From: Marsupella aquatica
Taxonomy: Eukaryota; Plantae; Marchantiophyta
NCBI GenBank assembly: GCA_973895155.1
Contig: OZ316898.1
Span: forward strand, 1,959,927-2,023,926
DNA: 64,000 nt
Direction of reading: 5' to 3'
The notes below the pieces were generated by a model. The model saw only the letters and a list, made by a program, of their open reading frames with translations. It searched no databases and was not told the origin of the DNA. The position numbers and the translations under genes are program-made. Below, in pieces: positions 14,181 to 64,000 of this stretch. How positions within the stretch are numbered: position 1 is the stretch's first letter; each line of letters starts with the position of its first letter.

Positions 14181-14269
14181 TATATCAATGACTCTACAAT
14201 TATGACCGGTGTCTGGAATGACTATTGAGTATTTTAATCTTCATATCTCTTGGGTTCTTTAATGACTCT

Positions 14270-14700: not shown

Positions 14701-17700
14701 AACACCGTTGGTTAAAATGACGGTAATACATTTTTTGTCATTTATCACCGTTGTCCAAAATGACTCAAATAGATTTTTGGTCATTTCAATCATTGTCCAG
14801 AGTGACTATAATGTTGTTAAACACTGATTTATCATTGTTGTTATTAATTGCATCATTTAAGACATGTGTCTAAATTGACCATTTAGGGAAATTGGGTCAT
14901 TTTGGTCACATCAGTCATTACAGACATTATACAAAATGACGCAAAAGTTAACATGTTGTCATTTCAGTCCATTGGTCATTGTGGACAGTCATTCCCCTGT
15001 CATTCTTTTTGTGTCATTAAAATTTTTGGTCATTTATTCATCTCCGTCATTGGGTGATTGGTCATAAAGGGCCCTGTTTTCTTCTAGTGTAATTGACAAT
15101 GCCCATAACTTTCTAGTTAGGCGTCCGCAAGCGGAGTCAGTGCCTTAGCCCGTTGTGATTGGGCCGACCCAGTGCTCATGCCTAGGCCCTCAAGTCCTAT
15201 TGTCACCCGGGACCCCCAATTGGCCAAACCGGATCGAACCGTAACTCGTGCCGCAAGCGGCCATATTGTAGCTTCATCACCTAAATAGATAGCCTGTAAT
15301 GGAGGGTTCAAACATCTATGGAACTTGAAGAAGACCTAGAATGAATGATTGTCTATCGAACTGGGTAAAGACAACCCCGAAAGGATGGACACGTAGCCAA
15401 AGTTCATCCAACCTAAGTACCACAATTTTCAGTTCTAGAATATAAGAGATTTTTACAGCCATGTTAAACTATTCCACTCGAGTGTCACTATGAAGAGGCA
15501 ACAGTGTCATCTTGCGCTGCTGGAGTAAAATTCAACATTCATAATTAGAACGGCAATAATTGTCTGATGCGCTCGAATATGATGTATCATTGACCAGAAA
15601 TGACAAATGGAGCAATAGACTAGATTTTTACAGATCAATTAAGATTAAACAGTTATGCCTCTCATCTTCATTCTTCGCAGCTGCGTCAAGGGCCTGAAAC
15701 GGAAGTGGAGTGAGCGTCATGAAACAGGGCAACAAATGCAAGAACGCCAAAACCAATCTCGTTTGAAAAGCTTCAATTCAGAAACTTCCATTTCTTTTAG
15801 CCCAATACCGGCATCTTAAAGGTGTCAAGCTCCTGCAGAACACTCAAAAGCAGGTAGGATATACCAGACCGAATAATTTGCAATATAGTGATCAGCTTTA
15901 AAGCTTTAAAGTGCCAGCGATTCTAGCATCATTCTTGGCCTCCCTTCTGTCGATCAAAGCTCCCAAGATTAAAGTTACGACGAGAGTATGAAGCGACCAG
16001 ACAAGAAATCTCAAAGGTAAACTTCTCTGGAATCACCACAAGAAGGCCCTCACCTCTAGTGAATCCACCAAAAGCCCTGCAGAAGTTTTCGAGCATTGAA
16101 TTACCTCCTGACGCGACTACTCCGTCAACTGGATTTCCATCGGACACATTACCAGTCATCCATCTTTTGAGATACAACGAGAACTCTTCCCAAATGCTCT
16201 CATGCACCATCGGAGTGGCGTCATCCCCTCCAAAATCTCCAAGGAGCAAACGGAAGCATCGAAGAGATGGCGATATTAACTCTTCATTATCACTCCTCTA
16301 GCGCGAATATGACAATTCAATTTTGGTACGATATATTGCTGGTCATCCATCTTGTGAGATCCTTGGAGAAGTATTATCAAAACGGCCTGAGGCATCCAGA
16401 GTGACCTCATCCTCTCAGAAAATCCAGCAAGCAAATGAAAGCATCGAAGAGTTGGTGATATTAATTCTCTTCATCACGTTCTTTGCAGAGAGCCACGAGA
16501 GTTGGCTTTTGCTCCAGCTCTGGCTCCGGCTCCGGCCTATCGTTGAAGACCAATTTCAGCCGCTTCTACAGAATAAGAATTAATTTCATCAGATTCACTA
16601 GAACAATCGATATTGCCTAATAGTTTCGTTCCGGTGACATTTCGAAACCGCCTAGGAACCAGATTTTATTCTGGGAAGGCTCAGTGCCAGACACGATCCT
16701 CTGTGTTTGCAAGGGTCTCCCTTCTGGCCGGTTGAGCACGCACGTACCACCTTCCAAAAGAAAGAAAGAAAGAAAGAAAGAAAGAACGGATGTGCTCTGT
16801 TCGCTCTCTTACGAGATTAGGATTGAGGTTTGATGGCTTCGGAGGGAAATGATCTATGAGGAAGAAATCGATAATCTCAGGGACGAATTGATCGTGTCGA
16901 GAAGAAATCGACTGTCTGGGGCAGAGGTTTTGGAGGGAATTGATCTTCTAGGGAAAAAAATGATCAATTTGAGAGGCATCGAAGGCGTGGAGAAGAAACT
17001 GAATGTCTGGGTCCGAGAATTGTGGGAAGGAATCGCTTTTCTGATCATTTGTGGAGAATTTCAGCTTCTGGGGAAGAGAATCGTCTGGGACAAAAATTTC
17101 GGAAGAAATTGATCTTTTGAGGAGGAGTTGATTGTGTGAGGGAAAAATTGTCGTCATGGGAAAATTGTTGGGAGTGTAGGTTTTCAAATACAGCTTTCTT
17201 CATTGAATACTGGAGAAGGCGTTTATTTTGCATTTCAAGTGTCATCCTTCTGATCATCAAGACTCTGATGATCACCCCCCAACATTTACTTGGAAAATGA
17301 TGCTGAATAATCAGAGTGGTGTTGATTGAGGCTACGTACATAAGGGTGAAATGTACATTCAAACTCTCTGAATATGCTCCATCAGTTTGCTGGGCACTCA
17401 TTCCTTGACTAGAGAGGAGTACCATGTACTGTACCTCACTTTGCAAGGACAGGATTAACAAGTAATAATATGATATCCCCAATAATAATTTTGTTAAGCA
17501 TTTACTCTTAAGTTTAATGTTGCGACTATAATGCATGAGCCCATGGGGTTAGATTACCCCTTGTGGTGGTTACATGTTTCCCCGTTTCATTCAGTTTCAC
17601 AAAACCTTTTTCTTTTAACTTGTAAAATAGTTTATAGTTAGGTTAACCTTAGTCACAGATTTACTTAATTTAGTAATGTTGTGCACTATATGAAGCACAT

Positions 17701-23400: not shown

Positions 23401-25172
23401 ATGAAACTCAACTCTGCTAAAGGCTTCCGCAGAAATACATTAATTTTGATTAGTTTGTGACTTGCATCGTTTTATTGGTTGTCAACAATGGAATAGATTT
23501 GCACATCTGAGACAAGAGTTACAAAGAAAGTATTATTTATAAGTGGGATAGTTCAGTATTTGCTTTCAAGTTGGCATGGCTGTCTTCAGGATGAAACATG
23601 ACTCTTGTTTCTTTGTATTCTCGTTGTCATGGCGCAGGCTGTCTATCTAGCTGGCGCCAAGGAATATTATACCTACGCGTGAGACATTTGAAATTGATGG
23701 AATCATTTCATGAAAAGTCAAGTTGGACTGCATTTCTAGCATAATTTTGTAACCTAAGAACCAGTCTGACTGGCAGTCCAATTCATTGAATGCTCTTTCG
23801 CTAATTGGGCCATCTTCCATGGCATGGATTTTGCAGGCAATATCAACTTGCATGTGGACCTCCTTTGGTGAACGTTGATCCCACTCCGTGCTTGGGACTC
23901 TTCAGAGGAACTCTTGGTATGATTGTCTCTTGTCCTCTGTGATAGGGAGCACCATTCCCCTCCTGTGCCTCTACTTTTCTCATGCCTAGTTAGCACTTTT
24001 TATCTTAGTTATCCCTATACTAAAGTCTTAGTTATCGCTATACTAAAGAAGCCGAAGCCATTATCTCGACTATATATAATAACATCTTTCTAATGGTTGA
24101 ATCTAGATGCGCCATGTACTTCTTTCTACCATCTTTCTATGTTTAAATTTGCGCCCCTGGATGAGAATAAACGAGAGGGTTAATCTAAATTGGATGAAGG
24201 ACAAACATTGTGCCCATCTTCAATAATATGGCATTTGCGAATGGCTGGAAAGTAGCCATTTAAATTACTTGAAGTAGTCATAGAACTAAGAAATAGCCCT
24301 CGATGTTAGACGAGATCTTACATGACCAATGTCCTCTCTAATGACTACCTCTGGAGTTTTGCAGGTAACAACAGCTACACCAATGTGTCTCGCCTTGGGT
24401 TCTATTCCCAATACTTTCCACAACCCACATCTACATACAACGTCAATCACCTTGGCCAAGGTAGGGTGCATCTTTCTTTCCAATTGTTTTTACTGTCTTA
24501 TGTTTTATAAACTAATTAATATGCCCAATTAATCATCCATATAGTATGTAGTACCTACCGTTAGTAAGGTAATGACACTAGAAGGGTGTGCAAAGTATCA
24601 TATTACAAGTTGTTACTGGCCACAACTAATAACACAAAAAGAGTCATGGCTGTAACGGTACAGCTCACTCAATTAGGATGGGTCTAGCGGGTGTCCATTC
24701 AACATTTTACGTGTTCTATTATCAATTCCATATAACTGATTCTCAAGTCCTTTTGTGAAACTTAATAGTAATGTCAGTTAAATCTACAACTTTAAGGGGA
24801 GCCTTTTGTCACAATGCTCATATTCTCAACCTTACACATTTCTTAACTTATGTAATTGCAGGTTTGTTAACAAGGAAATTTGCATTTTATGACAAGGGAA
24901 CTAAGGATAATGAGGCTTCTTATGGGCAACCCACACCTCCAAGTTATGACTTAACATAGTTTCCAGCCAGCCTTCCAATGCAATACTGGATTGGGGGGAT
25001 TGATGCAGTGTCGGACCCAACCGATGCAGCACAAATTTTAGCTTTGGTGCCAAATTCAAATAGAGAAGTTCATACTATACCAAACTATGGCCATTCAGAT
25101 TTTATCCTGGGTTCTAATGCTTACATAGATATTTATCCATCTCTTATAGCATTCCTTAAGAAGCATGTGTAG
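20420..25172 (+). pseudogene. Secreted LIP1/gastric-type triacylglycerol lipase, copy 2; 9 exons with an in-frame premature stop
   Basis: Exons 20420-20581, 21520-21633, 22191-22331, 22456-22569, 23223-23387, 23638-23678, 23837-23916, 24365-24460 and 24862-25172 all have GT-AG borders with consistent phases. Motifs: signal peptide, VVTDDGFIL, PVLLQHGL, ILADAGFDVW, WSYDELASYDL, nucleophile GHSL|G, PQPTS, YGQPTPPSYDL and YGHSDF. A TAG at 24957-24959 precedes the catalytic Asp and His. Confidence 0.88.
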
Positions 25173-26916
25173 GATCCAGCAGCAAATTCTATTATTGGCA
25201 TCAGACATGCATACATGAGTTTACAAAAAGGTTATGGAAGTGGTCATTCAGACTCACACATAGGCCAGAGGTGGTCAACTAGGTAGAACAGGGCAGTTAT
25301 CATGTAGTTACCAAATGTGCAGCAACAAAATAAATTGTAGAAGGCTCCAAAGAGCTCGATCAACAGATCTGCCCCAACCTGTATCACACTCTACACGGAA
25401 AGAGTTTATGTTGTTTGATAAAAGTCTGCAAATTGCTGTCGATATAAAGCTTAGTGTTGCCCATTCCCTTTCAGTGATTTGGTATGAGTTGATGCATGAG
25501 TTGGAAGACAAGGTAGAAGACAAGACACTCTTAGGATTTACTCTTAGGTCTAGATTTACGATTGTATCGTAGTCAGGGCTAACCTTAATTGCAGACTAGG
25601 TTAGGTTAGTCATGTTGTGTGCACACACTATACCCAAGCGGTGTTTGCTTGGAGAGTAGGAACTTCAGGCTCGTTGTTACGGAGCCAGTTGAGAGATAGG
25701 GGGAGCTTGTGATGTGGATGTTTGGTCTAGAGTGCGGTAAAGCTTTTGTGTGTTTCCGTGGAAGTGAATCACTTATCTCTCTGTGTCGACACTTGTGCGT
25801 TGGATGGTTCATGGACTTGCCGTTGTGATTGTCGCCTATGTTCAACAGACAGATGGAGGTAAGAGAACTGGACTCCGAGAGTAAAAAGGAGACTTGAATG
25901 TCTGCTTGTTCTTGTAAAGCCCCCCATTAGTCTCTACTTTGGATGTTGATCATTAGAAAAGGAAGACTTGCACGTCCACTCTTTCTTGTAAAGCCCCCCA
26001 TTAGTCTCTACTTTGGATGTTGATCATTATTTAGAAAAGGAGGACTTGCATGTCTGCTGGTTCTTGTGAAGCCCCCCTTAGTCTCCATTCATTGTAGATG
26101 TTGATTGATAATTAGTACAAGTTTTTAACCTTCTTGTTTTTGCTTCTGGCCTTTTGAGTAAATGTTCTCTTGTGCCTTTCAAGTTACTTCATCTTACTTA
26201 CGCAGTTATCTTGAAGCTATGACCTACACGAGCCTGACTGATGCTGTTGCACAGAAAAGGCTGGGCCCCAACTGTACGCCCCAAAAACCCTACACCCCTA
26301 ATAAGTTACACCCTGTCCATGCACAGTACAAGCCTTCGCTATTAATAGTACCTATATACGTATTTGAGCTTTCTTTCTGATTCCAAGTGTAAGTACCAGC
26401 ATATTTCCCACCATGTGTACCCCATGAAGCACCATAGGATGGTCTTGGCTAGAAATGAACATGGACTGACGGGTGTCCAAATCTTTTTACTCTGGGTTTT
26501 TCTTTTGGATTGTTTTTTCTGGACAAACAAATGGACTCAAATAAAGGGCTGTTATGTTGCTAACTAAGGGTTATGGTCATACTCTAGCCAAGAATTTCAG
26601 GATATATAAGCTCAGTTGGATCTGCATTTAAACCTTTTGCTCACCAAGCTCATTTCTAAGATTATAATTATAAAGATATTCTAAGAAAACATGCATTCTA
26701 AGTGAAGTGATATGGATTTAGGAGAAGAACAAACTTAGTTGACTTTGATAATAGAAAGAGAATTTTAAGTATCCCATCCATTCAAGTGAAAAAAATCAAA
26801 ACCCTAGACACTAAAACCAAGATTCCATTTCAAACAGGTTGCTCTTTTGCTCACATATAATTAAATTGTGAACCTCTGCTTTAATGCTTTTGAGGAAAAG
26901 AATAAAAGTTCTCCCC
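24988..26916 (+). repeat. Segmental duplication copy B, with an extra ~319-bp insert (25528-25846) and an extra short repeat unit
   Basis: Alignment by eye to 1-1545. Confidence 0.88.
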
Positions 26917-36591: not shown

Positions 36592-37862
36592 TTACATGGA
36601 GCTGTTATAAGTTTCAGATCCAACAGTGCCTATAAGCAACCATAGATGAAATGTGGCAGTTCGTACTTGCTCACCCCAAGCATCGGATACCATTTTCCTG
36701 ATGTCATCGCTGACCAGATCAACTCCCTGGTCGAGGGCAGTTTGCACAGCAGAAAAGGACCTCCAGAAGTTCATGAAGTCATCTAGTGACCACTGCTTGG
36801 GCACGTCCACAGTATGAGGCCCAATACCGTCCTCTCGAGCAGCTTCGAATGAAAATGGGATTGTTCTGTAGCCTTCTTCGACGTATTTTATCGGTGGAGC
36901 CCAATATGGTCCGGACATCCTGTACATTGCATGGATGACTCTGTCCACCTCTGGGTTGACGGTTGGAATTCCATAACACCAAGCAGCGATTACTCCTCCG
37001 GGCTTTCTAAGCACATGTTTCACGATTGAGTAGAATTTGTCGAGATCGAACCAATGCATGGCCTGAGCCACGGTCACCAAGTCCACGGACCCTTCCCCTC
37101 CCACGACACGTTCCAATTCCTCCATTGATGATGGGGTAGATGACATTTTGCTATATGTGACCTTTGGGTGCTGGACAGAGAACGATAGCTGCTCCTCGCT
37201 CAAGTCTGTAGCCACCACCGATTCGTAGTGCTCGGCCAGCTGCACACAGACATCGAAGGTGTGGTCAGCTGGATCAACTGATGTATGCCTTTCTCTCGCA
37301 AAGTTAATGCAGACAGGAGTGAGACGACGTTCTTCAAGTGGAGATTCTGCCCATGTTCTAGCTCAGTGCAGGTTGTTTAAATTCCTCTACTCTGTTTCAT
37401 CTGCAACATGGTTTCTGACGATCCCTGTTAAAATCTTCTGATTCAGACGTTGCAACTCTGGACAGAACTTTTGCTTTCTTGTAGCTCATCAGTTACCCCT
37501 TCTTCCATCTTCAATGATTTCAGATGTGAAACTCTCTTGCTCTCTCGAGTATGCATCGCGCAGGACTACCCGGATGAAAAGGCACAAGACCCAATCTATG
37601 CTCTAGTAAAAATGACCCCCCAAAACAACCAGAGTTATGACTAGCTACCTCATCTGGAGAACCTATTGCATCTCGCAACGAGAGGAGGGGGGAGACAGGA
37701 GAGTTGAGTTACCATAGCTGCAGCTTGGCCATTGCCAGTACCAACATCCCATGCGTGCTGATGCTGGTGCGTCAAATCGGCAAGCATTTGAAACATAGAA
37801 GCAGGGTATGTGGGCCTGATTCGCGCATACGTGCTTGCTTGCTTCCCGAACAGCGACGCCAT
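36592..37862 (-). CDS. Class I SAM-dependent methyltransferase (Methyltransf_11, embryo-abundant-protein type), 2 exons
   Basis: Exons 37862-37713 and 37239-36592. Motifs: MASLFGKQASTYARIRPTYP, AWDVGTGNGQAA, SVDLVTVAQAMHWFD and VLRKPGGVIAAWCY. Confidence 0.92.
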
Positions 37863-49590: not shown

Positions 49591-50118
49591 ATGAAGTGGG
49601 CCGAGATCAAAGCCAAGCTACCCTCTGACAAGACACCAGAGGCCAAGGCAGAGCGATCCAAATTGTTCGATCAGTTCGACCCAAATGGCAATGGTTATCT
49701 CTCCTTGGCAGAAGTTGACAAGGGTGTTCGTGATGTTCTGGGACTCGAGGACGTGTACGAGGCCAAGTCTGCTGTCATGAGAGCTTTTTCTGCAGCCAAG
49801 AATGTTGCAACGAGCAAGGCAAAGCTTGGACCAGACTTTGTGGAGCGTTCGGAGTTCAGGTTGATCCTCCTCTACCTCGGCAAGTACTACGAACTGTACG
49901 AGATGTTCGAGATTGTTGATAGCAGCAACGATAGAAGAATCAACAAGGCGGAGTTCAAAACTGCTCTTGCCGAGCTGGGAAAGTGGGGCATCAAGGTTGA
50001 CAACCCGGACGCTGAGTTTGAGATGATCGATGGGAACAAGGGAGGATACATCCTCTTCGACGAGTTCGCCGACTGGGGCCTAAAAAAGCACCTTGAACTT
50101 GAGGATGATGCAGAGTAA
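49591..50118 (+). CDS. EF-hand calcium-binding protein, flagellar calcium-binding protein (calflagin/FCaBP)-like
   Basis: 175-aa intronless ORF with EF loops DPNGNGYLSLAE, DSSNDRRINKAE and DGNKGGYILFDE. Family-like segments include WAEIKAKLPSDKTPEAKAER, MRAF, DFVERSEFRLIL and KWGIKVDNP. A 5'-UTR splice acceptor lies at about 49558. Confidence 0.85.
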   Translation: MKWAEIKAKLPSDKTPEAKAERSKLFDQFDPNGNGYLSLAEVDKGVRDVLGLEDVYEAKSAVMRAFSAAKNVATSKAKLGPDFVERSEFRLILLYLGKYYELYEMFEIVDSSNDRRINKAEFKTALAELGKWGIKVDNPDAEFEMIDGNKGGYILFDEFADWGLKKHLELEDDAE

Positions 50119-53283: not shown

Positions 53284-55603
53284 ATTATGGACCAAAAAAA
53301 AAAATGGTGGATTTCAAATTTCTGATATCTTGGCCGTCCATTCCAATTCAAATTCCTGCAATGTTGGCCATCCATGTTTGTTGCATCTAGATATCTCATC
53401 TGTCAATTTTAGAAGGGCATAGAGTGCTCAAAAGAAAAATCTCAGGGAGATCATCGGCTGGATTTGTTCTGTGTAATAAATGAAATAATATGAAAACAAC
53501 AAAAATAATTTCATTTGTGGCCTGCCATTTGTCCTCCCACTTCCCATTTTGTTCCCTGTATGAAAATAGTGAACAAGTATTTTACTGTCCATTGCACAAA
53601 AATGGCTTTTGTACCTATAGGTGTAGTGTAAATTTCATCATGTGTCGTTCATTCGAGACCATCCCAAAATCAAACTTTTTCTACACAGCGTTACACATGT
53701 GACAAGCTCTGGAAAAGTGGAAAAGACCAGTCTCGATTTTTAATAATTGAAGGTTGGAACTTGGGAAAATTTACAAGAGAATTCTTACACTAAACTCCAT
53801 CGCTCATAAAATAATGCAAACAATGATTGACTGACAGTGATGTCTAAATGACAATAGCATACTATTGATAGAATTGAGTGCGAGAAGTACAGCACCTGCC
53901 AAATAAATGTACATTTCACAAGGTGACCAGGAAAGGTACAAGTGCACAAGTCTCGAAAAGTTGTGGACATAAGGTATACATTCCCCATTTGCCCTAATGA
54001 CACTCAATCAAACATTGTGCACATATATTTTACAAGATCGTCCCTTGCCAATGACAATAAACACCATAAGCGCAGCAAATGAAAGTACGAGAAGTACAAG
54101 AGCAGGAGGTGTCCGTATCCCAAAATCCCAAAATTTTCTTTCTCTATCATTCACTAGAATTGGGAGGAATTCCATATAATTTGCTAAATGGGGTGGATGC
54201 ACTACATTCAAAACTAAATGTACTGGGAAAGGGCATCTATAGGATAGCAAGATAAAAAAAAATAAGAGGGATGCCAAAATAAATTAAAATCTACGTCATA
54301 CTAGTATTGCACCTTAGTTGTGATGATGGCACATTGAAATAAAAATATGTGACAACAAATCTTAGTAAGACAAAATACTTTGGATTGGCCATATAACACT
54401 GTCAAAATAACCCCAACAATTATGTGAGTCCTTAGTTATGAATTTTGTTTCCTTTTTCTCTCAAATCACAAATACCCATATAAAAGGGGTTCTCCCTTTC
54501 CACTCACTTCTTTCCTCGATGGTGCCGGTCTACTCCAAGATTTTGGGAAAATGTTTTAGTTAATATTTACATTTGGATCTTATGGGAATAATCTTGAAGG
54601 GGCAGCTGTGGTTTAAATGAACACTTTACTCAGCACTAAAGGGTCAAAAGGTCACTATAATCCCCACATGATGATGATTAAAAATTGCGATTCAAAAATT
54701 ATTAAAAAGTGCGATTCAAAAATTGTGGGAGAAGCTTGACACAAAAGCCTGGATGGACCAAGACATTGTCCCTGCCCTTCCCCATGGAATGCATAAAGCG
54801 ATTGTTGCTTTTACATTGCAGAGAAAAGGGAGCCGATTGCGGATCACAGTTGACAGCTTTGACTACCTCCAGGAGAGTAGTCAAGACGTGACGGCATTCC
54901 TGAGTAATGGCATGACGTCTTTCAGGTTGAGGTCATCAAGTTGGTAATGTAATTAAAACAGGCTGCATCACACTTACATGCATCACTGATTGTTTTTTAC
55001 ATGTAATTGGAGTTGATTAATTTCAGTGTTTTCTTTGCATTGCTTGAATTGTACATCTCTAATCTAACTATAGTATGTTTTTCTGATCTTAAAATTAGAA
55101 AACAACAGAAAACCACAAATTTACTGTGGTGAGATTATGGACTTGGGACACATTTCTGACCAGAATACTAAGGTGCTTCTAATAAGCCCCACCCAAAACG
55201 GATAGGCTTTGCACCCCGCTTTGTACCTAGCAACCCCTTCAAATTACATAGCTTTGCACTAGACTTAAGGTTGAGCAAATGTGCTACATTGGAGTGGGAG
55301 AAGTGGCCAAAGTGCACCTCATCACAAGAAAGCTCTACAACCTCCTCCCTCGCTTGGGGGCAGGGGGTGCCAAAAACAATTCCCAGGCCTTGTATTCAAA
55401 TAATGCTCCCAGGGGTATTTTATCCAAATAGAAAGCCCTGGGCCTCCTATTTGAGTTTCAAACTTACATTATGTTTTGCAAGAAGTAGGGTCTTTGTATT
55501 TGAGATTGGCCTTTCAAATTGAAACCAACCTTGGTTTGTCTTGTTAGATGGAAGGCAAAGATTGCATGCTAGAGCATGGCAAGCCAAATTCTTTTGAACC
55601 ACA

Positions 55604-56212
55604 TGTCGTGCGCATACATATCGCTACACAACATACATCGCTTGTCACATACATCCAGACATAGTCACACTGCCACATCACAAATACAAGAGAATGGAAT
55701 ACAAGTGGAACTCATGTCCACACATGTCCAAAACCCACAATAATCTCCATACAATCGGCACAACGATCTCGGTCAACAATACCCCATCGATCCCGCACCG
55801 ATCCGATCACACACGTATGTCAAGCCAACGCACCTTGCACTACTCAAGGAATCCACGTTACACAAGCGGAGCTCACAGCCACCATAGCCACACTCAAGCT
55901 CCTCTCTCTCCAAGGCTCAACATTGAAAGATGACCTTTCAATGCCTCACAAGTGAGAAGTACCCTCTCACACAAACCTGACAGAACCTTATCGGCTCCAA
56001 TAGCACTCATACCAAACGTACATACTCTAATTAATAGCACGATATACTACTACACTACTCAGAATGGTGTGACAGCTGTCGTGCGCATACATATCGCTAC
56101 ACAACATACATCGCTTGTCACATACATCCAGACATAGTCACACTGCCACATCACAAATACAAGAGAATGGAATACAAGTGGAACTCATGTCCACACATGT
56201 CCAAAACCCACA
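55604..56212 (-). repeat. 3' LTR (609 bp) with an internal 136-bp terminal direct repeat
   Basis: TG/CA termini, directly adjacent to the PPT. 55604-55739 is identical to 56077-56212. Confidence 0.8.
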
Positions 56213-56224
56213 ATCGCCCCCCTA
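56213..56224 (-). promoter_or_regulatory. Polypurine tract
   Basis: The minus strand reads a G-rich tract followed by CGAT immediately before the TGTGGG start of the LTR. Confidence 0.7.
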
Positions 56225-56387
56225 GTTGGGAGTAAGGTCCCCTAACTCTAGCTAGCCATGAGTTCTACAAGGTTGATATACACCTTTTTAGGTGTGAAGA
56301 TCAGGAGGCCGGGTGCAAGTGAGCCCCATCGATCACCTACCTGCAATCCATATCTGCCAAGAGAACACAAATGATAACTAGTCGGCT

Positions 56388-57968
56388 TCACCGACACTGA
56401 GGACACAACCATGATCCACTAGGAATCACCTGCAATGGTGGTGTCAAACATGACATGTGCCATCCTCTAGAACACTTATCACAAATCAACATAGTAGCTG
56501 CTCCCTGAGCAGATCCACACAACATACATTTCAAGCCAGCACGAACATGTGCCAAGCTTGGATCTACTGTACCATCAATGTTGGGAAGGTGACATGGTGC
56601 ACAGTTGCGCACATGATCCTTCCAAACCATACCATCGCGTCCCTCCAACATCAGGACACCAGAAGGCAACACTTCACGCACACGTAAGATTGTCCGGCCT
56701 GCGGTCACATCAAGTGTCGTGGGTGCTGTCTGCTGCAAATAAACATAATTACCAGGATGAAATCGTCGAATGCTTGCACGGTAACCTCCTCCACGAATAG
56801 TGGCATACCTCAAAGTATCACGATGTTGGGCAATGGCAAGGTTGTCAAAAGCCATGGGCATCACTCTCTGAAATACCCGTGCTCTCTCTGAACACACCTT
56901 GACCCAAACATCAGGATCATCCAAGTTCACAACTGGTGCAGCATGACGACGAATAGTTGCTGGCAAATCTGGCTCTCTACCATAGAGCAAAAAGTAGGGT
57001 GAGAAGGATGCAAGTGATGCTTGCCGACTGAAACGGTAGCCCATAGCTAACCAAGGTAGCTGGAGATCCCAATCTTCCAGATGACCAACCTGCAAGCCAT
57101 ACTTACGCAATCCTCTCTTCACAGTTTGCACAACTCTCTCAGCTAATCCATCTGCCTCAGGATGATCACGAGAGGTAGTACGATGATCAATCAGAGCTTG
57201 TTCACACAAACTCTCAAACTCTCCACGGAACTCAGTTCCTTGATCAGTCAACACCTCAGCTGGTGCTCCAAAATGACTGAGTACACGATCCAAAAATGTA
57301 GCAGCAACTCCTCCACTGGCTTTATCTGGCAACGCCACTAGCTCAATCCACTTGGAGAAGTGCTCCACCATGACCAAAACATACCGATTATGACGTTGGG
57401 TAAGAGGTAATGGACCAGCAAAATCCAAACTCCAACGATATCCCAAACCCATGATCGGCAACGGGTGCAACTGGGGAGTGGGAGCATTAAATGATGCTCT
57501 CACTCTATCACATACCACACACTTAGCTATCAACTGTTGGACATGAGTGTGCATACCACGCCACCAATACTGTGTCTGCAGCAAGCTGTAAGTGCGCTTC
57601 ACACCAAAGTGACCCAACTCCTCGTGCGCATGTCGCACCAAATGTACTCGTTGTGATAGTTTTGGTACCACCAACATCCTACCATCATGCAGTACTCTCA
57701 AAAGATGGTTTCCCTCCCATCGAAATCTCTTGGCTCTCTGTAGAACCCTGTCACGTTCCTTGGCATCAACACTGCCAACAATAGAACCACTGCGCAGATA
57801 TTCCAACACTCTCACATCATTGTGAATATCTTGTTGTCCAGAAGTTACCTCACCAACATCCACATCTGAAGACTCATCACCCACTCCATCCAATGAAGTA
57901 GAGTCCACAGATCCACTGTATGCTGGCACCCAACAAAGAAAGGCAGATGCATGCCATCCTGGCACCAT
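56388..57968 (-). CDS. Integrase (HHCC, DDE core, SH3-like tail) with a C-terminal PHD finger
   Basis: HEELGHFG...CVVC, then WSLDFAG / LTDQGTEF / LAERVVQ. The protein ends in CMLC...LICDKCSRGWHMSCLTPPL..IPSGSWLCPQC (C4HC3). Confidence 0.95.
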   Translation of the reverse strand: MVPGWHASAFLCWVPAYSGSVDSTSLDGVGDESSDVDVGEVTSGQQDIHNDVRVLEYLRSGSIVGSVDAKERDRVLQRAKRFRWEGNHLLRVLHDGRMLVVPKLSQRVHLVRHAHEELGHFGVKRTYSLLQTQYWWRGMHTHVQQLIAKCVVCDRVRASFNAPTPQLHPLPIMGLGYRWSLDFAGPLPLTQRHNRYVLVMVEHFSKWIELVALPDKASGGVAATFLDRVLSHFGAPAEVLTDQGTEFRGEFESLCEQALIDHRTTSRDHPEADGLAERVVQTVKRGLRKYGLQVGHLEDWDLQLPWLAMGYRFSRQASLASFSPYFLLYGREPDLPATIRRHAAPVVNLDDPDVWVKVCSERARVFQRVMPMAFDNLAIAQHRDTLRYATIRGGGYRASIRRFHPGNYVYLQQTAPTTLDVTAGRTILRVREVLPSGVLMLEGRDGMVWKDHVRNCAPCHLPNIDGTVDPSLAHVRAGLKCMLCGSAQGAATMLICDKCSRGWHMSCLTPPLQVIPSGSWLCPQCR

Positions 57969-58040
57969 CTCCTTATCTGACTCATCATGCCATCTGGCTC
58001 CAATCTCATCCTGCTGACTGGTACATGGATTGCAGCTTAA

Positions 58041-59468
58041 TCAATCTGCATCCAAGTTCACTTTTCCAGGCCTATGCACCACCTGGAAATCATACTCATG
58101 TAACAACAATGCCCATCGTGCAAGCTTCCCTGTAAGCTTGTCAGACTCCATTAACCACTTAAGAGGCTGATGATCAGTGATCAAGGTGAAGGGGTTACCA
58201 AACAAGTAGCAACGAAAGTGTGCAATAGCCCACACTGCTGCCAAACACTCTCCCTCATACGAGCTATACTTAGCCTCTGCTGAATTGTTTGATCTACTGG
58301 CATAAGCCACAACAAACTCATTCCCCTCATCATCCTTCTGAGTCAGCACTGCTCCAAGTCCTACTCCACTCCAATCAGTGTGTAGCTGAAATGGTTTGCC
58401 TGAAATGGGTCTTCTCAAAATAGGGGATGATGCCAACCTTTGCTTCAACTCCTGAAAGGCATGCTCCTGGTCATCACCCCAAATCCATTCCTGATCCAAC
58501 TTAGTGAGTATGGTCAAAGGTTTAGCAAGCTGGCTAAATCCTTTAACATACCTCCTGTAGTAGCTCGCCAATCCCAAGAATGCACGAACTCTACTCACAT
58601 CAGTAGGACAAGGAATCTGTGTAATGGCCTCCACTTTAGTTTGCTGTACACCCAATCCCCCTGGGTATATGGTGTGGCCCAAATACTCAATCTGGTCTTG
58701 GAAGAACTTACACTTGCTAGGATGGAGCTTCAACCCATGTGCTCTCAATCTCTCCAACACAGTCTGCAAGTGCTGCTGATGTTCTTCCACAGTAGAAGAA
58801 TAGACCAAAATATCATCAATATAACATCTGACAAAATCCAAACCTGCAAGGATTCGATCCATGACTCTCTGGAACTCAGCTGGTGCATTCTTCAACCCAA
58901 ATGGTAAGAATAACCATTGATACAAACGATCTTTGCCATAAGAATCAATCCCCCAGAATGCTGTCTTGGACCTGTCAGCATGCCTAATTGGAAGCTGATG
59001 GTATCCTGCCCTCAGATCCAATGAACTGAAAACCTTTGCATGCCCCACAGCATCAAAGATCTCCTCAGGTGTGGGCATGGCATATCGATCAGATTTTGTC
59101 TGGCGATTAATAGGTCTGTAATCACCACACATGCGCCTATCTGTGTAATTGCCATGCACATCCTTCTTGGCTGGCATCACTGTGGCAGATGCATACTCCC
59201 CATATGAAATCTCCACCAATCCAGCCTCCAACAAATCTTGAGTTCTACTTTGAATCAGAGCTCTCTCCATGTCACTATAACGGTATGGTCTACGAAAGAT
59301 TGGCGCATCACTAGCCAATTCAATCTGAATACCAGGGCCCTTCAATGTCCCCAAATCCTTCATGCTGAATGCAAAACAATTCCAATAACTCTTCAGGAAT
59401 CGATGCATGCGACGTCTCTCCTCCCCTGTTAACTTAGGGCCAAGCTGTGGTTCCCAACTCTCCACCAA
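58041..59468 (-). CDS. Reverse transcriptase and RNase H
   Basis: RMCGDYRPIN, SSLDLRAGYHQ, LPFGLKNAPAEFQR, CYIDDILVYS, LHTDWSGVGLGAVL and TDHQPLKWL. Confidence 0.97.
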   Translation of the reverse strand: MVESWEPQLGPKLTGEERRRMHRFLKSYWNCFAFSMKDLGTLKGPGIQIELASDAPIFRRPYRYSDMERALIQSRTQDLLEAGLVEISYGEYASATVMPAKKDVHGNYTDRRMCGDYRPINRQTKSDRYAMPTPEEIFDAVGHAKVFSSLDLRAGYHQLPIRHADRSKTAFWGIDSYGKDRLYQWLFLPFGLKNAPAEFQRVMDRILAGLDFVRCYIDDILVYSSTVEEHQQHLQTVLERLRAHGLKLHPSKCKFFQDQIEYLGHTIYPGGLGVQQTKVEAITQIPCPTDVSRVRAFLGLASYYRRYVKGFSQLAKPLTILTKLDQEWIWGDDQEHAFQELKQRLASSPILRRPISGKPFQLHTDWSGVGLGAVLTQKDDEGNEFVVAYASRSNNSAEAKYSSYEGECLAAVWAIAHFRCYLFGNPFTLITDHQPLKWLMESDKLTGKLARWALLLHEYDFQVVHRPGKVNLDAD

Positions 59469-59513
59469 ATCCCTAATATCTCTTTGTAGGGTAGAAGAGA
59501 TAGCCGATGATTG

Positions 59514-62438
59514 CTATTTAGCAGTAGATTGAGCAGTCCCTTCCTGCTCAACAATCTGTCCAGCCGCCAATCCTGTCATAGGTCCATGGACTGTCTGCTC
59601 GCCCCCAGCTGTGATCAATACTGTCTCAGTGGACCGCAAGCTCACCAAGGGACAATCAGTAATTCCGGCAGAGCGCATCCGCAACTGTTCAGCTACTCCC
59701 AAGCTGATAATCCAAGTCAAACAATTCAAATCCATTGCTTGACCAAGAACCTGGCGCCGCAAACCCTCTGACACAGAGGCAACTGCAGTGGTGCCAGTCA
59801 AAAATCCCATAGCACGCTCTCTCTCATCAGCAGTAGACTCCACTAACTGCTGGAGAGCTGTGTCCCATACAAGTCCAGGGCCACCTGCTCTGAATGCATA
59901 TGAAGCAGAGTGGCTTACAAGAGTGGGTAATGCACAATGTGGGCACCCAACTGCATTGACCATTGCCAATGGAGGTCTATCAGGTTGGGTCACACCCTGT
60001 GCACGACGCCCTGGATCCAAAATATCATCCACCACTAAGGCTGGTGAGCGTGGAATGCTGTCAAATGCGCGCTTCAGCACCTCACATGGGATCAAATTAG
60101 TCCACCATAAGCGTGGACGATGTGCACGAGAACCCACACGTGCAGCATCCAATAACACAGCAGGTCCAATCCAAGACCTCACCTGGTGAACACTGGCAAC
60201 AATCCGACTACGATCATCACCTAACAATGGCACATTCTCCAAAATGTATGCTGGAGGCTGTGTCTGATGTAGCTGGAGGTGACGCAGCACCCGTAACATC
60301 TCCCAAAACAATGCAGAGCGTGGATCATGAAGTCCATGCCCAATGCCAGCTCTAGATTGGCCCTGACATGGCCAACCAGCAATCACCAAATCAATGGGGC
60401 CAACACGATGTAGATGATCCGCCCCCAACAATGAAATATCAGTAGGTAGTGCATGCTGATAACCACGAACAGCATCCACTGGCAGCAACTGTGGATATCT
60501 ATCCACCAACATAGCCACATGTCGCAATGAGACCCTCCGTGTTGTCTCATCTGTCTCCACATACAAATAACGACGCACAGGAATTCCTGCCTGAAGAACA
60601 GCAGCCAATCCAGTGCTAATCCCACCAAAAAGATCCAACAAACAAATACCCTCCGGTGGATACTGCCAAGCAATAGGAGTGGTATCCAATGGTGAAAGAG
60701 TCACAGGTCCATCTGCAAGAGACTGCTCTGCTCCTGACTGTGGTGTAAAAGCATGACGCCATGCATCATGTACCAATCGTGCTGCTGCCTGTGGCAAGGC
60801 TTGTGCAGTGCCCCACACTGGTGGCACAACACTGCCAACAGGTAATCCTCGCATGATGTGCTCCTCATGAGACTCCTCCAATGGTGGAACATCGGCTGCA
60901 TGCGCATTACCCTCAATCAAATCATCAGGTCCAGCAATTACACCACTGAATGCTGCCAAAGACAATGGTGTGGATTTAGGGCCTCCCATAGGTCCACTAA
61001 ATCTCACTGGCAATTTGCTCAATCGAGCATCTCCTGACTGCCAATCAGGTCTATATGACACTGATTCCTCCCAAAAATCAAGAATAAATCCCATGGGGTA
61101 GAGCACTGTACATCCCACCAACACATCATATGACTCTGCCTTAGTCAGAATAGCTCGCGCCTGTATCTGTGAGCTATCTGTGGTATGACCTTCCTGAATC
61201 CTCAAATCAAGTGGTCTCCTGGTGATATGCTGTGTAGGTGTAGGTCCCCCCAATGAAGTCTGAATGGGAAAGGGACAATCCTCCAAATCCTCTGGACGCA
61301 ATCCCAATCCACGTATGGCAGACTTCCCCAACATCAAGGGTTGAGCACCAGTATCCAGTAACACTCTCTCTGGCTGGTATACTGCTCCAGAAGGCCCAAC
61401 TAATCGGAAGATACCACTCCGATTATCCAATGATACAACACTATGTTTAAACCTAGTCCTCTCAAATGCAGGGCGTGCTGGTAAATCCACCAACCTCGCT
61501 GCTGCTGCATGCCATGTCTCACTAGTAGCAGTAGGTGGCATGGTCTTCACTGCATCAACACTGCAAGTTGCTTCTGCATGGGAAGCAACCACTGGAGTGT
61601 CCTCACAGAGTGTAGCTGCCAATCTGAACACTTCTGCAGGACCAACTCCCAAGTTCAGCATGTCTGTCGCTAAAAATAATGGGGTGCGTACTATGGCAGT
61701 AGCCGCCCCCAGCAAGGTACCTGTCATCCCTGCTGCATCACTACTTGATTCTGCCAACTTACCCACATCAGGGTTTGTCCGAACCGGGTTCATAGAGGCA
61801 GTCTGAACTGTCTCTGACAATGTAAAAGACTGAGGAAGCTTTGTCTGCCGACGTGCATCCCCCCTTTGTGGATCTAACTCCACTACTGCTCCTCGGGGCT
61901 CAAGAGCTTTGGCTGCCCCACGTGTCAAAGCTGCTAATGCATCAATATGTGCAGTGCCACACATGAATCCCATGGTGGCAAGGTCTCCATCAGCTCCATA
62001 AGATGTGGAAGGACCATGGGATGTGGAAGGTCCATAGGATGTAGATGCCCCATCACCAGAATTAGGTCTCACCTGGGAACTAGCCATGGCAGCTAGTTGT
62101 TGCTCCAATTGAGCAATCTTAGCATCCTTTGGATCTATGGTTACAGCAGGGGCAGTGTCACCTCCCTGTCTCCCTGCATGTGGCATGCCATGACCACGTC
62201 CACCACCTCTACCTCCTCCTCCTCTTCCCTGATCATGTGTACGGGATCCTCCTCTCCGTAACTCAGGGTGGAGTGAGAAACACCTATCCTTGGTGTGTCC
62301 AGGAGCTCCACAGTGATCACACTGTCGCTGATCAGGCGCTGATGCTCCCCCTGATCCTCTATGATCTGGACAATATCTCTGTGCATGATCCCCACCACAG
62401 GTCCAACATCCTGACTGCTGTCCAGCATAAGAGGGCAC
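59514..62438 (-). CDS. Gag zinc knuckles, aspartic protease and DNMT3-like C5 cytosine DNA methyltransferase
   Basis: Knuckles CWTCGGDHAQRYC and CDHCGAPGHTKDRC. Protease VLLDTGAQ...YDVLVG. MTase motifs I LDLFGGISTG, IV DLVIAGWPCQG, VI ILENV, VIII AHRPRLWWTNL, IX ERERAMGF and X RRQVLGQAM. Confidence 0.93.
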   Translation of the reverse strand: MPSYAGQQSGCWTCGGDHAQRYCPDHRGSGGASAPDQRQCDHCGAPGHTKDRCFSLHPELRRGGSRTHDQGRGGGGRGGGRGHGMPHAGRQGGDTAPAVTIDPKDAKIAQLEQQLAAMASSQVRPNSGDGASTSYGPSTSHGPSTSYGADGDLATMGFMCGTAHIDALAALTRGAAKALEPRGAVVELDPQRGDARRQTKLPQSFTLSETVQTASMNPVRTNPDVGKLAESSSDAAGMTGTLLGAATAIVRTPLFLATDMLNLGVGPAEVFRLAATLCEDTPVVASHAEATCSVDAVKTMPPTATSETWHAAAARLVDLPARPAFERTRFKHSVVSLDNRSGIFRLVGPSGAVYQPERVLLDTGAQPLMLGKSAIRGLGLRPEDLEDCPFPIQTSLGGPTPTQHITRRPLDLRIQEGHTTDSSQIQARAILTKAESYDVLVGCTVLYPMGFILDFWEESVSYRPDWQSGDARLSKLPVRFSGPMGGPKSTPLSLAAFSGVIAGPDDLIEGNAHAADVPPLEESHEEHIMRGLPVGSVVPPVWGTAQALPQAAARLVHDAWRHAFTPQSGAEQSLADGPVTLSPLDTTPIAWQYPPEGICLLDLFGGISTGLAAVLQAGIPVRRYLYVETDETTRRVSLRHVAMLVDRYPQLLPVDAVRGYQHALPTDISLLGADHLHRVGPIDLVIAGWPCQGQSRAGIGHGLHDPRSALFWEMLRVLRHLQLHQTQPPAYILENVPLLGDDRSRIVASVHQVRSWIGPAVLLDAARVGSRAHRPRLWWTNLIPCEVLKRAFDSIPRSPALVVDDILDPGRRAQGVTQPDRPPLAMVNAVGCPHCALPTLVSHSASYAFRAGGPGLVWDTALQQLVESTADERERAMGFLTGTTAVASVSEGLRRQVLGQAMDLNCLTWIISLGVAEQLRMRSAGITDCPLVSLRSTETVLITAGGEQTVHGPMTGLAAGQIVEQEGTAQSTAK

Positions 62439-62501
62439 AGGTCTCTGGCTGGTAGACTCTCGTGCAGTAGGCTTCTCCCTCTGGCTCTTCCGTGCAGTAG
62501 G

Positions 62502-63503
62502 CTATGGTGTGGATGTAGATGCAGCCTTTGGTGCTTCCTTGGAAAATCCGAAAGTCACCACCTTCTCATTCACCATATTGAGCTCAATGCGCTCAGAAAG
62601 GGTGAAAACAACTGCTAATATGGGATCTGCATCCCTAAGCAGAGTGACATCTCTCACTCTGCGTCGCAATTCTCTGTCCAGAATTGCATACCAAAACTGG
62701 ACTGCCTGAGCCTCTGTCACTTCCTTGGTGACAGTGATCAATCTGCGCATACGTGTGTATGCCTCACGTAGGCTCTCTCCAGTCTTGCGTTGGAACTCCT
62801 GAAGACCCTTCAACTTATCAGTTCTCACACCCTGATAGTTCTGCTTCAGTACCTCAAAGAATTCCACCACAGGATTAAATGCTGGCGCAACTCCAGTTCC
62901 TGTCACAATCACACCGGCAGGAGTAGTGGTGGATGTTGCTGGAGTGCTGCTGGTGGATGGTGTGCCACTCTGGCTAGTGCTGCTAGAAGAAGCAGCAGCT
63001 GTGGCAATTGGTTGGGCAGCCGCACTAGTGCCATAGGTGATGGACACGTAATTAGGCGACCAATGCTGCCTCCATGCCTCAATCTCAACCAAATGAGCCT
63101 TTCGAAACTCATGGTAGTCATCCATGGGTGGCCCCTCCAAATGCTGGAATAATCCCTTCCATGCCATGAAAGGGGTAAACAACGTGACATTACGCAATGT
63201 CTGCATATCGCACCACGTATCAAACTCCTGGATGAAGTCATCCAGATCAATTGTGCCAACTGCACCAGAGTATCGTCGTGGGCCCTTTGTAGCCCCGTAC
63301 ATCTCGTCCATATCCCACAACAAAGGTGCAACCACCTGATGATGAGGAGAACTGATCACTGAGTCCTCATCAGAATCACTATCTGAAGCTGCACTGCTGA
63401 CTGCTACCAATGCCGCTGGCCAAAACTGTGCCCCACTCTGAGTGAAACCGGTCCGTCGTCCATCGGGTAATCCAGCAGCACCAGAAGAATCCGTGGTGAC
63501 CAA
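62502..63503 (-). CDS. Gag N-terminal (capsid-like) region; first ATG at 63311
   Basis: PRRYSG...DLDDFIQEFDTW, and FQRKTGESLREAYTRMRRL (retrotransposon Gag QxxGESxxxY motif). It is in frame with all downstream ORFs. Confidence 0.85.
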   Translation of the reverse strand: MVTTDSSGAAGLPDGRRTGFTQSGAQFWPAALVAVSSAASDSDSDEDSVISSPHHQVVAPLLWDMDEMYGATKGPRRYSGAVGTIDLDDFIQEFDTWCDMQTLRNVTLFTPFMAWKGLFQHLEGPPMDDYHEFRKAHLVEIEAWRQHWSPNYVSITYGTSAAAQPIATAAASSSSTSQSGTPSTSSTPATSTTTPAGVIVTGTGVAPAFNPVVEFFEVLKQNYQGVRTDKLKGLQEFQRKTGESLREAYTRMRRLITVTKEVTEAQAVQFWYAILDRELRRRVRDVTLLRDADPILAVVFTLSERIELNMVNEKVVTFGFSKEAPKAASTSTP

Positions 63504-64000
63504 CCCTAATCTAATCTATGTGCTAACCCTAAGGGCAATCTATCCCTGTCAGCACCACAAGCACTCACCATGGTGTGTTGGGCATCACTCTAACATCACC
63601 AAGAGAGAAATACACAGCATACTAGAATGTCCAGTTGCAAACCCGGATCACTCCTATGGAATCAAGCGCCCACACGAAACTAACATGGCGCATAAACAGG
63701 AAACATGTGTGAAGAGGATCCAGAAACAAGAATGGATACCATTCAACTCTCCACACAAAAGCAAATGCAAATCAATATGACAATGTGCATAAGGTTCAAG
63801 GAAGAGCCTTCATAATAGGCTTCACAATGGCACTCCAATGTTGTAGATGAGAACCAAGGCAAAATTGGTTCAATCTGTGAGTCTAGATGGACTCAGAAGT
63901 ATCAAAAACCCTCAAACAGCCTCTGATTTGGCCTAGAATAGGCCTCTAAACAAACCGGGAAGTATATAAAGCCCCCTGGCGCTTGAATCTAAACAACAAG

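Follow-up and report, generated by a model that had tools for sequence, protein, structure and literature searches.

A DNMT3-like methyltransferase ahead of a conserved, predicted readthrough stop in a Ty3/Gypsy retrotransposon of the liverwort Marsupella aquatica

It is still not settled where the first methylation mark on a new transposon insertion comes from, and what the DNA methyltransferases (DNMTs) borne by some transposons do has been a matter of guesswork since 2018, partly because Symbiodinium and Klebsormidium are hard hosts. A 64,000-nucleotide stretch of contig OZ316898.1 of Marsupella aquatica (the window) contains one decayed member of a Ty3/Gypsy retrotransposon family that is present in many copies and has split direct repeats; the element encodes a cytosine methyltransferase (MTase) between its protease (PR) and its reverse transcriptase (RT), with a stop codon directly behind the enzyme. 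This locus raises the question of whether the enzyme is a working part of the element, and of what the stop that follows it would do.

The single frame given in the earlier note, from 63503 to 56388 on the minus strand, was confirmed when the translation was re-read, with its 2372 codons, no frameshifts, and three internal stops, at codons 334 (62504), 1330 (59516), and 1821 (58043). The domains follow one another along this frame in the order Gag-CCHC-PR-MTase-RT-RH-IN-PHD (Table 1), and the copy in the window is dead because two of the stops are the result of decay. The order PR, MTase, RT also stands, but the TAG at 59516 divides the frame into ORF1 (Gag-PR-MTase) and ORF2 (RT-RH-IN-PHD), which places the MTase at the end of ORF1, ahead of a conserved stop, and means that the one polyprotein proposed in the note would be formed only through the bypass of this stop. 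The interval assigned to the MTase there (59720..60650) does contain the domain, but is slightly narrow, given that the domain runs from about 60671 to 59664.

Table 1. Features of the element in the window, with the evidence for each.
Feature	Position	Strand	Evidence
Gag region	62544..63311	-	alignment to Marchantia homologues
Decay stop 1, copy-specific	62502..62504	-	sense codon in 94-100% of depth, 4/4 runs
Two zinc knuckles, CX2CX3HX4C and CX2CX4HX4C	62280..62408	-	pattern in translation and homologue alignment
Aspartic protease, LLDTGA	61014..61436	-	Asp_protease_2 E 0.008
DNMT3-like C5 cytosine methyltransferase domain	59664..60671	-	PF00145 E 9.8e-12
Conserved in-frame TAG with CAA TCA (CAR-YYA), predicted readthrough site, ORF1/ORF2 boundary	59508..59516	-	sequence, runs, relatives
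Reverse transcriptase core, YIDD	58668..59144	-	RVT_1 E 5e-35
RNase H	58092..58481	-	RT_RNaseH E 7e-37, RT_RNaseH_2 E 4e-34
Decay stop 3, copy-specific	58041..58043	-	sense codon in 100% of depth, 4/4 runs
Integrase zinc finger and DDE core	57159..57656	-	Integrase_H2C2 E 4e-16, rve E 6e-14
C-terminal PHD finger	56394..56528	-	PHD E 1.2e-10
Purine run AGGGGGG, polypurine-tract-like, directly before B1	56217..56223	-	sequence
Repeat B1, 138 bp, CA end	56077..56214	-	100% identity to B2
2-bp spacer and repeat A2 (TGTCA start)	55742..56076	-	layout as in relatives
Repeat B2, element 3' end (...GACA)	55604..55741	-	repeat identity; depth drop

The likely start of Gag is the ATG at 63311 (codon 65), given that residue 1 of the homologues P0003, P0004, P0005, and P0008 aligns with residue 65 of the query. 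The Pfam search of the frame recovered no match for Gag or for the two zinc knuckles, and its match to the protease is weak and below the cut-off, although the LLDTGA motif is present nonetheless; the protease is 40-60% identical to that of related loci in families A and B. The GAG-PR-RT-RH-IN set of the Ty3/Gypsy elements was found, together with a DDE integrase. The same window also harbors a CACTA remnant, which lacks an MTase, and an EF-hand ORF.

Two full LTRs are absent from the element, and are replaced by split repeats, A1...B1-A2-B2, in the layout seen in loci L033, L040, L045, L046, L053, and L076. The A1 partner of A2 is predicted to lie upstream of Gag, outside the end of the window. 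A run of G precedes B1 in all 11 loci displayed, and the sequencing depth of run X1 is about a thousandfold lower below position 55450 or so. The relatives have TG...CA ends, and 4-bp target duplications were found in five of the six full-length related loci, a result that comes from the relatives, as the window carries only the 3' end of the element. An identity as a DIRS element, with a tyrosine recombinase, was rejected on the basis of the rve and Integrase_H2C2 matches, with no recombinase match in Pfam, and of the target duplications of the relatives.

The methyltransferase motifs reported in the earlier note were all located, with LLDLFGGISTG (motif I) at residues 955-965, AHRPRLWWTNL at 1128-1138, and RRQVLGQAM at 1249-1257, while the catalytic cysteine of GWPCQ is residue 1046 (codon 60368-60366), and ENV occupies residues 1089-1091. 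Motifs I, IV, VI, VIII, IX, and X are in the canonical, unpermuted order, and the PF00145 search proposed in the note returned a clear match (Table 1). The assignment to DNMT3 rather than to the permuted plant DRM was upheld by three lines of evidence: the best PDB matches are DNMT3A/B; the profile scores are 95 bits for DNMT3A, followed by 60 for 4onj, 48 for DRM2, 39 for M.HhaI, and 26 for DNMT2; and all 32 of the Foldseek rows displayed are DNMT3. The AlphaFold model (pLDDT 95.9) superposes on 6f57 with a TM score of 0.71 by query and 0.84 by target, and an rmsd of 3.2 A. The domain is thus nearer to DNMT3 than to DRM, the bacterial C5-MTases, or DNMT2. A plant DRM identity was discarded, given that motif I comes first, rather than motifs VI-X before I-V, and that the DRM entries align by their C-terminal part only. 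The catalytic domain of the mammalian DNMT3A/3B (PDB 6f57, 6u8p) shares the motif order, the fold, and the catalytic residues, but the identity in the structural alignment is only 21-24%, and the MTase of the window is about 50 residues longer, is borne by a transposon, and lacks the PWWP and ADD domains, for which the Pfam search of ORF1 gave no match.

The stop at 59516 did not arise by decay, being fixed throughout the family. No variant of at least 2% was found at 59508-59523 in any of the four runs, in which the decay stops are sense codons in 94-100% of the depth, although nine invariant bases are not significant by themselves, with only 24 of the 181 places being variable. A stop is found at the equivalent place in three other families, that is, A, B, and the lineage of L036. 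In family A, it lies 72 codons past the MTase in 28 of the 29 informative loci, many of which are near-copies of each other, and is followed by CAA CCN in 27 of 28. In family B, the sequence is TAG CAG TTA in L020 and L022, and TAG CAA TCA in L029, while L036 has TAG CAA CCA. The full UAG CAR-YYA motif is thus matched in the window and in these four loci, and family A matches CAR-YY only. Across the four lineages, the residue after the glutamine changes (Ser, Leu, Pro), whereas CAR-YY is retained. Among 674 decay stops located within domains, which served as a control, CAR came next in 17 cases and CARYYA in none. All 25 rows with the stop, or with a protein end past the MTase, fall into a single clade (98/95), and 21 of them are known from the protein end alone, rather than from DNA.

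The sequence that follows the TAG has the CAR-YY(A) context of tobacco mosaic virus (TMV), whose leaky stop is likewise UAG with CAR-YYA, and in which this motif directs readthrough by itself (PMC2194720). Readthrough of the stop at 59516 is predicted from this context, and is probable. No stimulatory stem-loop was supported 3' of the stop in eight sequences (z -0.1 to -2.3), with no conserved downstream structure. Between Gag and PR, no recoding stop was seen, with L020, L035, and L043 being open there, and the remaining stops scattered. A single in-frame stop divides two ORFs in the retroelements SIRE1, MuLV, and Tca2 as well, although their stops are placed at gag/pol or pol/env, whereas that of the window comes after the protease and a captured enzyme, and before the RT (PMC2194720).

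A real stop might, alternatively, be circumvented in another way, with RT-RH-IN-PHD being produced by Ogre-like splicing, an internal promoter, or reinitiation, although this is unlikely. Ogre has an intron between GAG-PROT and RT (PMC6317226), and the gag-pol stop of the Candida albicans element Tca2 proved not to serve as a local readthrough signal in yeast, and is passed by a non-local route (PMC2194720). The Marchantia and Sphagnum gene models P0005, P0010, P0012, and P0037 omit the stop, but do so by four differing junctions, and these elements appear "broken" or split by false introns in annotation. The linker between the MTase and the RT, of about 120, 141, or 185 codons, depending on the family, is in frame, with a single stop in the intact copies, and pN is lower than pS both upstream and downstream of the stop, which argues for coding on both sides. 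Reinitiation would be allowed in family A, where CAA CCC is followed directly by an ATG, three codons past the stop in the four copies checked, but L020 has no Met between the stop and the RT, and the first Met of the window comes 36 codons on, behind a conserved block. The retention of CAR-YY in four lineages also counts against such a route.

Under the readthrough reading, TAG CAA TCA would be passed by a few percent of the ribosomes, giving a large supply of Gag-PR-MTase and only rarely the full Gag-PR-MTase-RT-RH-IN-PHD. As the stop ends ORF1 after the MTase, the enzyme is predicted to be far more abundant than the copying enzymes, at the level of Gag, and far above the RT or the integrase, with an expected MTase:RT ratio of at least 10:1. 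The RT and IN usually get into the particle as Gag fusions. The abundant MTase would likely enter the particle together with Gag, where the protease may release it, and would likely methylate the cytosines of the new cDNA ahead of integration, perhaps with a preference for CG, by analogy with DNMT3A and SymbioDIRS-Dnmt3. Incoming copies would then be methylated already, which might serve as camouflage or as self-restraint. This model as a whole is favored with some confidence, although its parts differ, with the catalytic activity of the MTase being probable, and the cDNA being its substrate only a little better than an even chance. Methylation of the cDNA by the element itself had already been proposed by de Mendoza et al. 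in 2018 (PMC5890265).

The depletion of CpG was set aside as a sign of self-methylation, given that the CACTA remnant, which has no MTase, is equally depleted (observed/expected ratio of 0.24, against 0.35 in the element). The context of 17 hand-picked copy-specific transitions (4 CG, 6 CHG, and 7 CHH), a small and selected set, fits silencing by the host.

The abundant enzyme might act, instead, in the nucleus, at the site of integration, to which the PHD of the integrase would guide it, on older copies, or on the host chromatin, leaving a self-limiting or host-manipulating mark. Expression at the level of Gag would exceed the enzyme needed for one cDNA, the PHD is retained on most relatives, and, in those of the chlorophyte type, the MTase lies between RH and IN, and the adjoining integrase would bring it to the target site. 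In the stop clade, by contrast, the MTase is separated from the integrase and linked to Gag, and Pfam detected no targeting domain in ORF1, which leaves nuclear action rather improbable.

It is less probable still that the domain is retained for binding, or for the methylation of RNA, rather than DNA. The KnitGypsy-Dnmt3 domain showed no methylation in yeast, a result that its authors call inconclusive (PMC5890265), an amount at the level of Gag would fit an RNA-coating role, and motif I is only moderately conserved, with its F in 43 and G17 in 55 of the 63 aligned rows. Against this, the catalytic Cys is present in 63 of these rows, the Glu of ENV in 62, and the Arg pair of motif VIII in 63 and 61, the profile scores DNMT3A far above DNMT2, and CG methylation in yeast was obtained with related SymbioDIRS-Dnmt3 domains (PMC5890265).

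Neither an insertion confined to this copy nor neutral evolution, two of the three outcomes that the earlier note had set against its own reading, was found. Between families, the MTase is under purifying selection, with a dN/dS of 0.10-0.16 in nine of ten between-family or distant pairs, and 0.22 in the other, although the between-family dS is close to saturation (1.3-3.1). The values are 0.13-0.15 for the window versus family A, 0.11-0.14 for the family B pairs, and 0.10 for L047 versus L045, and those of PR are similar. The depth is equal over the MTase and the RT in four runs, the MTase is present in all 80 of the loci retained from a search that itself selected for it, and the MTase and RT distances are concordant across 81 elements (Mantel r 0.71, p 0.001). 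A passenger role for the MTase, as a host gene captured in a single event or one in neutral decay, might be argued from the dead state of the copy and from the dN/dS of 0.37-0.77 between closely paired dead copies of family A, but is contradicted by this depth, by the congruent distances and trees, and by the selection between families.

Named relatives come from Marchantia, Calypogeia, Sphagnum, Closterium, and Mesostigma, and, with the MTase between RH and IN, from chlorophytes; matches to viral contigs (30 loci) were set aside, being only partial (29-45%) and typical of phage MTases. Family C and the fused proteins P0301, P0316, and P0322 (Closterium) lack the stop, and have the MTase in one ORF with the RT and RNase H, and bulk MTase is therefore not required by all of these elements. 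It is possible, if still tentative, that one ancient split-repeat Gypsy lineage has carried a DNMT3 throughout the green plants, in chlorophytes as well as in liverworts and mosses, and that one branch shifted the translational brake to a place directly past the enzyme. Each Gag would then take an MTase into the particle, and new copies would be fully methylated before landing. If this is true, it is the transposon, and not the host, that writes the first methylation mark of each insertion, with the rate of readthrough setting the dose. The annotation of the genetic model Marchantia polymorpha lists close relatives as unnamed genes, which makes the question testable in that species, and such elements are also included when DNA methylase genes are counted in bryophytes.

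Gypsy elements that carry a DNMT are already known as a kind from KnitGypsy-Dnmt3 of Klebsormidium nitens, which has a Dnmt3-like domain (de Mendoza 2018, PMC5890265). The literature search found no published or characterized land-plant case of a DNMT3-carrying Gypsy, in agreement with the earlier note, and no K. nitens protein appears by name among the protein matches listed. The three protein searches yielded no DNMT3, DRM, CMT, or MET1 of a host either. KnitGypsy-Dnmt3 shares with the element of the window the Gypsy domains, an unpermuted, intronless Dnmt3-like domain under purifying selection, and a DIRS-like layout, in which one A repeat lies on each side and the 3' A is enclosed by two B repeats (PMC5890265); a DNMT Ka/Ks below 0.2, as in that element, was also found here in nine of the ten pairs. 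Its DNMT, however, is described as lying in one ORF with the RT and RNase H, whereas a conserved stop comes between them in the window, where the MTase closes the Gag-PR ORF. The term "PHD" is absent from the main text on KnitGypsy-Dnmt3, and the acquisition was placed in the K. nitens lineage, whereas the homologues recovered here span the chlorophytes to the bryophytes (PMC5890265). Ogre likewise has a break between the protease side and the RT, but as a spliced spacer of about 274 bp, rather than one stop codon in a coding, in-frame linker (PMC6317226); the MTase, PHD, and split repeats distinguish the window from Ogre, and "Methyltransferase", "PHD", and "Marchantia" are absent from the main text of that paper. 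The EpiLTRs/DAM-LTRs are also Ty3/Gypsy elements with captured DNA methyltransferases, some of them from chlorophytes, but carry a DNMT that is the sister of DNMT4, together with DAM and a chromodomain, and they are set apart from "streptophytes (Gypsy-DNMT3)" (bioRxiv 10.64898/2026.05.21.726589). Relative to the literature found in these searches, two features appear to be new, the putatively programmed stop by which the MTase falls on the side of Gag, and the spread of such elements across the green plants.

Translation of the decayed Ty3/Gypsy copy in the Marsupella aquatica window upheld the reading in the earlier note of a single frame with three internal stops and no frameshift. Pfam matches above the cut-off were recovered for RT, RNase H, integrase, and PHD, and for DNA_methylase (PF00145), the family proposed for the methyltransferase (MTase); the protease (PR) gave a weak match, and Gag, with its two zinc knuckles, was assigned by pattern and homology.

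Positions of the element and of other features in the window
Feature	Position	Strand	Description
Element reading frame	63503-56388	minus	2372 codons; 0 frameshifts; 3 internal stops (62504, 59516, 58043)
MTase domain	about 60671-59664	minus	Pfam DNA_methylase; motifs in canonical order
Inner B1/A2 repeat junction	55604-56214	minus	
Intronless 175-aa ORF	49591-50118	plus	PF22592, 106 bits; nearest structures trypanosome flagellar calcium-binding proteins (3cs1, E 1e-30)
ORF with Methyltransf_11 domain	36592-37362	minus	Unrelated to the element
Mutual repeats	1-1544 and 24988-26916		91-94% identity, about 25 kb apart
Tandem-repeat block	10300-14800		Units of about 580 bp, after the CACTA-like remnant
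CACTA-like transposase remnant	5075-7781	minus	DUF4216, E 1.6e-4; strong CpG depletion

The MTase carries LLDLFGG, GWPCQ, ENV, AHRPR, ERERAMGF, and LGQAMD, which are motifs I, IV, VI, VIII, IX, and X, in the order previously claimed, GWPCQ and ENV included. The catalytic Cys is present in 63/63 aligned rows, the ENV Glu in 62/63, and the motif VIII Arg pair in 63/63 and 61/63. The closest solved structures in a single-sequence search were DNMT3A, 3C, and 3B (E 1.5e-12), and a 63-row profile scored DNMT3A at 95 bits, versus 60 and 48 for DRM-type entries, 39 for M.HhaI, and 26 for DNMT2. With the AlphaFold model (mean pLDDT 95.9), all 32 of the Foldseek matches listed were DNMT3 structures (best TM 0.71/0.84). 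Profile and modeled fold point to a DNMT3-like enzyme, as the earlier note had proposed.

The contigs of four public sequencing runs extend across the element (about 55450-63700), and in one run (X1) the summed depth, which is not a copy number, exceeded the depth of the unique flank roughly a thousandfold. Protein searches recovered named relatives at 72-73% identity in Marchantia polymorpha and Calypogeia fissa, at 69% in Sphagnum troendelagicum, and at 30-41% in Closterium, Mesostigma, Monoraphidium, Haematococcus, and Cymbomonas, and the full-library search returned 249 clusters with E 1e-30 or better. Judged from these relatives of the element alone, a bryophyte host is likely. A one-off insertion of the MTase into the window copy, envisaged beforehand, is contradicted by this wide set of relatives and by an MTase depth equal to that of RT in the public-run contigs. 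Neutral evolution of the MTase across copies, the other case considered, does not hold between families, given pairwise dN/dS values of 0.13-0.15 for the window copy against four copies of family A (Sphagnum-like), 0.22 against the metagenome locus L020, 0.11-0.14 within family B (three copies), and 0.10 between L047 and L045, with dS near saturation in the distant pairs (range 0.10-0.22). In the same pairs, RT gave 0.04-0.10 and PR 0.13-0.15. Close pairs of dead copies gave MTase values of 0.09-0.77, a spread that is expected after insertion.

The stops at 62504 and 58043 represent decay private to the window copy, since a sense codon is read there in 94-100% of the depth in 4/4 runs. The stop at 59516 reads TAG CAA TCA, an exact match to CAR-YYA, the context which by itself is reported to be sufficient to direct readthrough in tobacco mosaic virus (PMC2194720). 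Across 59508-59523 the four runs have no variants at 2% or above, while 59503-59507 and 59524 are variable; as only 24 of 181 places vary in this comparison, the invariance shows a fixed stop, rather than a selected context.

The argument for selection on the context comes from the other families among the metagenome loci (the best 80 of 303). The MTase end is covered in 39 loci of the closer group; these comprise four loci of other families, six whose linker is truncated or rearranged, and 29 informative copies of family A. Among these best 80 loci, the family A stop lies 72 codons past the MTase in 28/29 (TAG in 20, TAA in eight), with L023 alone having a sense codon, and is followed by CAA CCN in 27 of the 28 stop-bearing loci, many of which are near-copies. 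The family B junctions are TAG CAG TTA (L020, L022) and TAG CAA TCA (L029), and that of L036 is TAG CAA CCA. As a control, 674 decay stops inside domains were followed by CAR in 17 cases, by CAR-YY in eight, and by CAR-YYA in none. The MTase-RT linkers vary in length, keep the frame, and have one stop each in intact copies, with pN below pS on both sides of the stop in 5/5 pairs. Many database proteins end 50-140 residues past the MTase, and one (P0001) ends exactly at the window's stop.

The elements have two layouts, with the MTase placed before RT in bryophytes, Closterium, and unnamed records, versus RT-RH-MTase-IN-PHD in 62 of 284 proteins among the matches listed, with Monoraphidium and Haematococcus as the named cases. 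The chlorophyte Gypsy proteins with the MTase between RNase H and integrase (P0285, P0256, P0302, P0317, and about 60 unnamed) often lack the MTase in precomputed Pfam labels, and in the Monoraphidium protein (P0285) the PHD is followed by a Tudor domain. Two element-family proteins (P0330, P0093) carry bacterial MAG names (Obscuribacterales, Spirochaetia), which are likely due to eukaryotic contamination of the bins.

In FastTree trees of the same 81 elements, a set that leaves out nine near-identical proteins and most near-copy loci, the layout switches once on the MTase tree and once on the RT tree, and the MTase and RT distances are correlated (Mantel r 0.71, p 0.001). Within the MTase-first group, a shared stop is missing from family C (L041-L080, except L048 and L065), eight loci of which are open from MTase to RT, and the proteins P0301, P0316, and P0322 are single ORFs. 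The 25 rows with a stop or ending after the MTase, 21 of which are known from protein ends rather than DNA, form one clade (support 98/95; IQ-TREE, 45 MTase domains), with support of 83 when the seven long-branch or unassigned rows omitted from this tree are included. Two further models, from Closterium (P0159, P0179), likewise stop shortly past the MTase but were scored with the fused group, because their neighbors continue into RT. The trees contain only MTase-bearing elements, and their simplest reading, with the order of events inferred, would be a single MTase capture, one shift within Pol, and a stop gained once, later.

We infer a mechanism of readthrough, release, and cDNA methylation, in which most ribosomes would end at 59516 to produce Gag-PR-MTase, while a few percent would continue, supplying the particle with Gag-linked RT, RNase H, integrase, and PHD. 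The MTase, made in Gag-like amounts and released by the protease, would encounter new double-stranded cDNA, and its likeliest use would be the methylation of this cDNA ahead of integration, as de Mendoza et al. propose for the DIRS-borne Dnmt3 (PMC5890265). Alternatively, the downstream proteins may be produced by reinitiation, or by splicing over the stop. Family A counts against readthrough, as its context is weaker and an ATG lies close by; some of its loci (e.g., L012-L014, L017) have CAA CCC ATG directly after the stop, and a shift in this family, either to reinitiation or to a signal weaker in readthrough, may have taken place. The Marchantia and Sphagnum gene models that reach RT by skipping the stop (P0005, P0010, P0012, P0037) use four different junctions, which are likely to be annotation artefacts. 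Family C works without a stop, which also counts against the mechanism. The MTase may otherwise act in the nucleus, or its role may be non-catalytic; cDNA methylation has against it a CpG loss in the window element not above that of the neighboring MTase-less element, and the silence of the Klebsormidium Dnmt3 domain in yeast, as reported in PMC5890265.

Elsewhere in the window, the ORF resembling flagellar calcium-binding proteins is odd for a bryophyte, and is perhaps tied to flagellated sperm, while the Methyltransf_11 ORF probably belongs, as one exon, to a host gene for a small-molecule methyltransferase. The mutual repeats perhaps represent a local duplication, or else flank another element as its terminal repeats.

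In the sources as available, Gypsy-borne DNMT3 is described in PMC5890265 and mentioned in PMC12344493 and bioRxiv 10.64898/2026.05.21.726589, and PHD-bearing Gypsy elements are reported in Chlamydomonas (bioRxiv 10.1101/2022.06.16.496473). In the passages covered, this DNMT3-bearing lineage is reported neither from land plants nor from chlorophytes, and no readthrough stop is described; the supplements may show more species or the domain order. The new feature, as read from sequence, would be a Gypsy-DNMT3 element of a probable bryophyte in which a conserved stop of leaky type puts the MTase on the Gag side.

Downstream of the PHD, the window element has a G run and then two identical 138-bp repeats separated by 335 bp, and the complete split direct-repeat layout (A1...B1-A2-B2) is found in six related loci, five of which have a 4-bp target duplication. 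Repeat B ends in CA, followed by two bases, and A then begins with TG, inside the element and at its ends alike; the inner B1/A2 junction (window, L033, L040, L045, L053, L076) resembles joined unprocessed integrase ends. Given these borders and duplications, a DDE integrase inserts an element bearing DIRS-like split repeats, a combination which needs a replication model beyond standard LTR priming. For the window copy, A1 is expected about 1.5 kb ahead of Gag, outside the window. The same repeat structure is described by de Mendoza et al. (PMC5890265) for KnitGypsy-Dnmt3 of Klebsormidium nitens.
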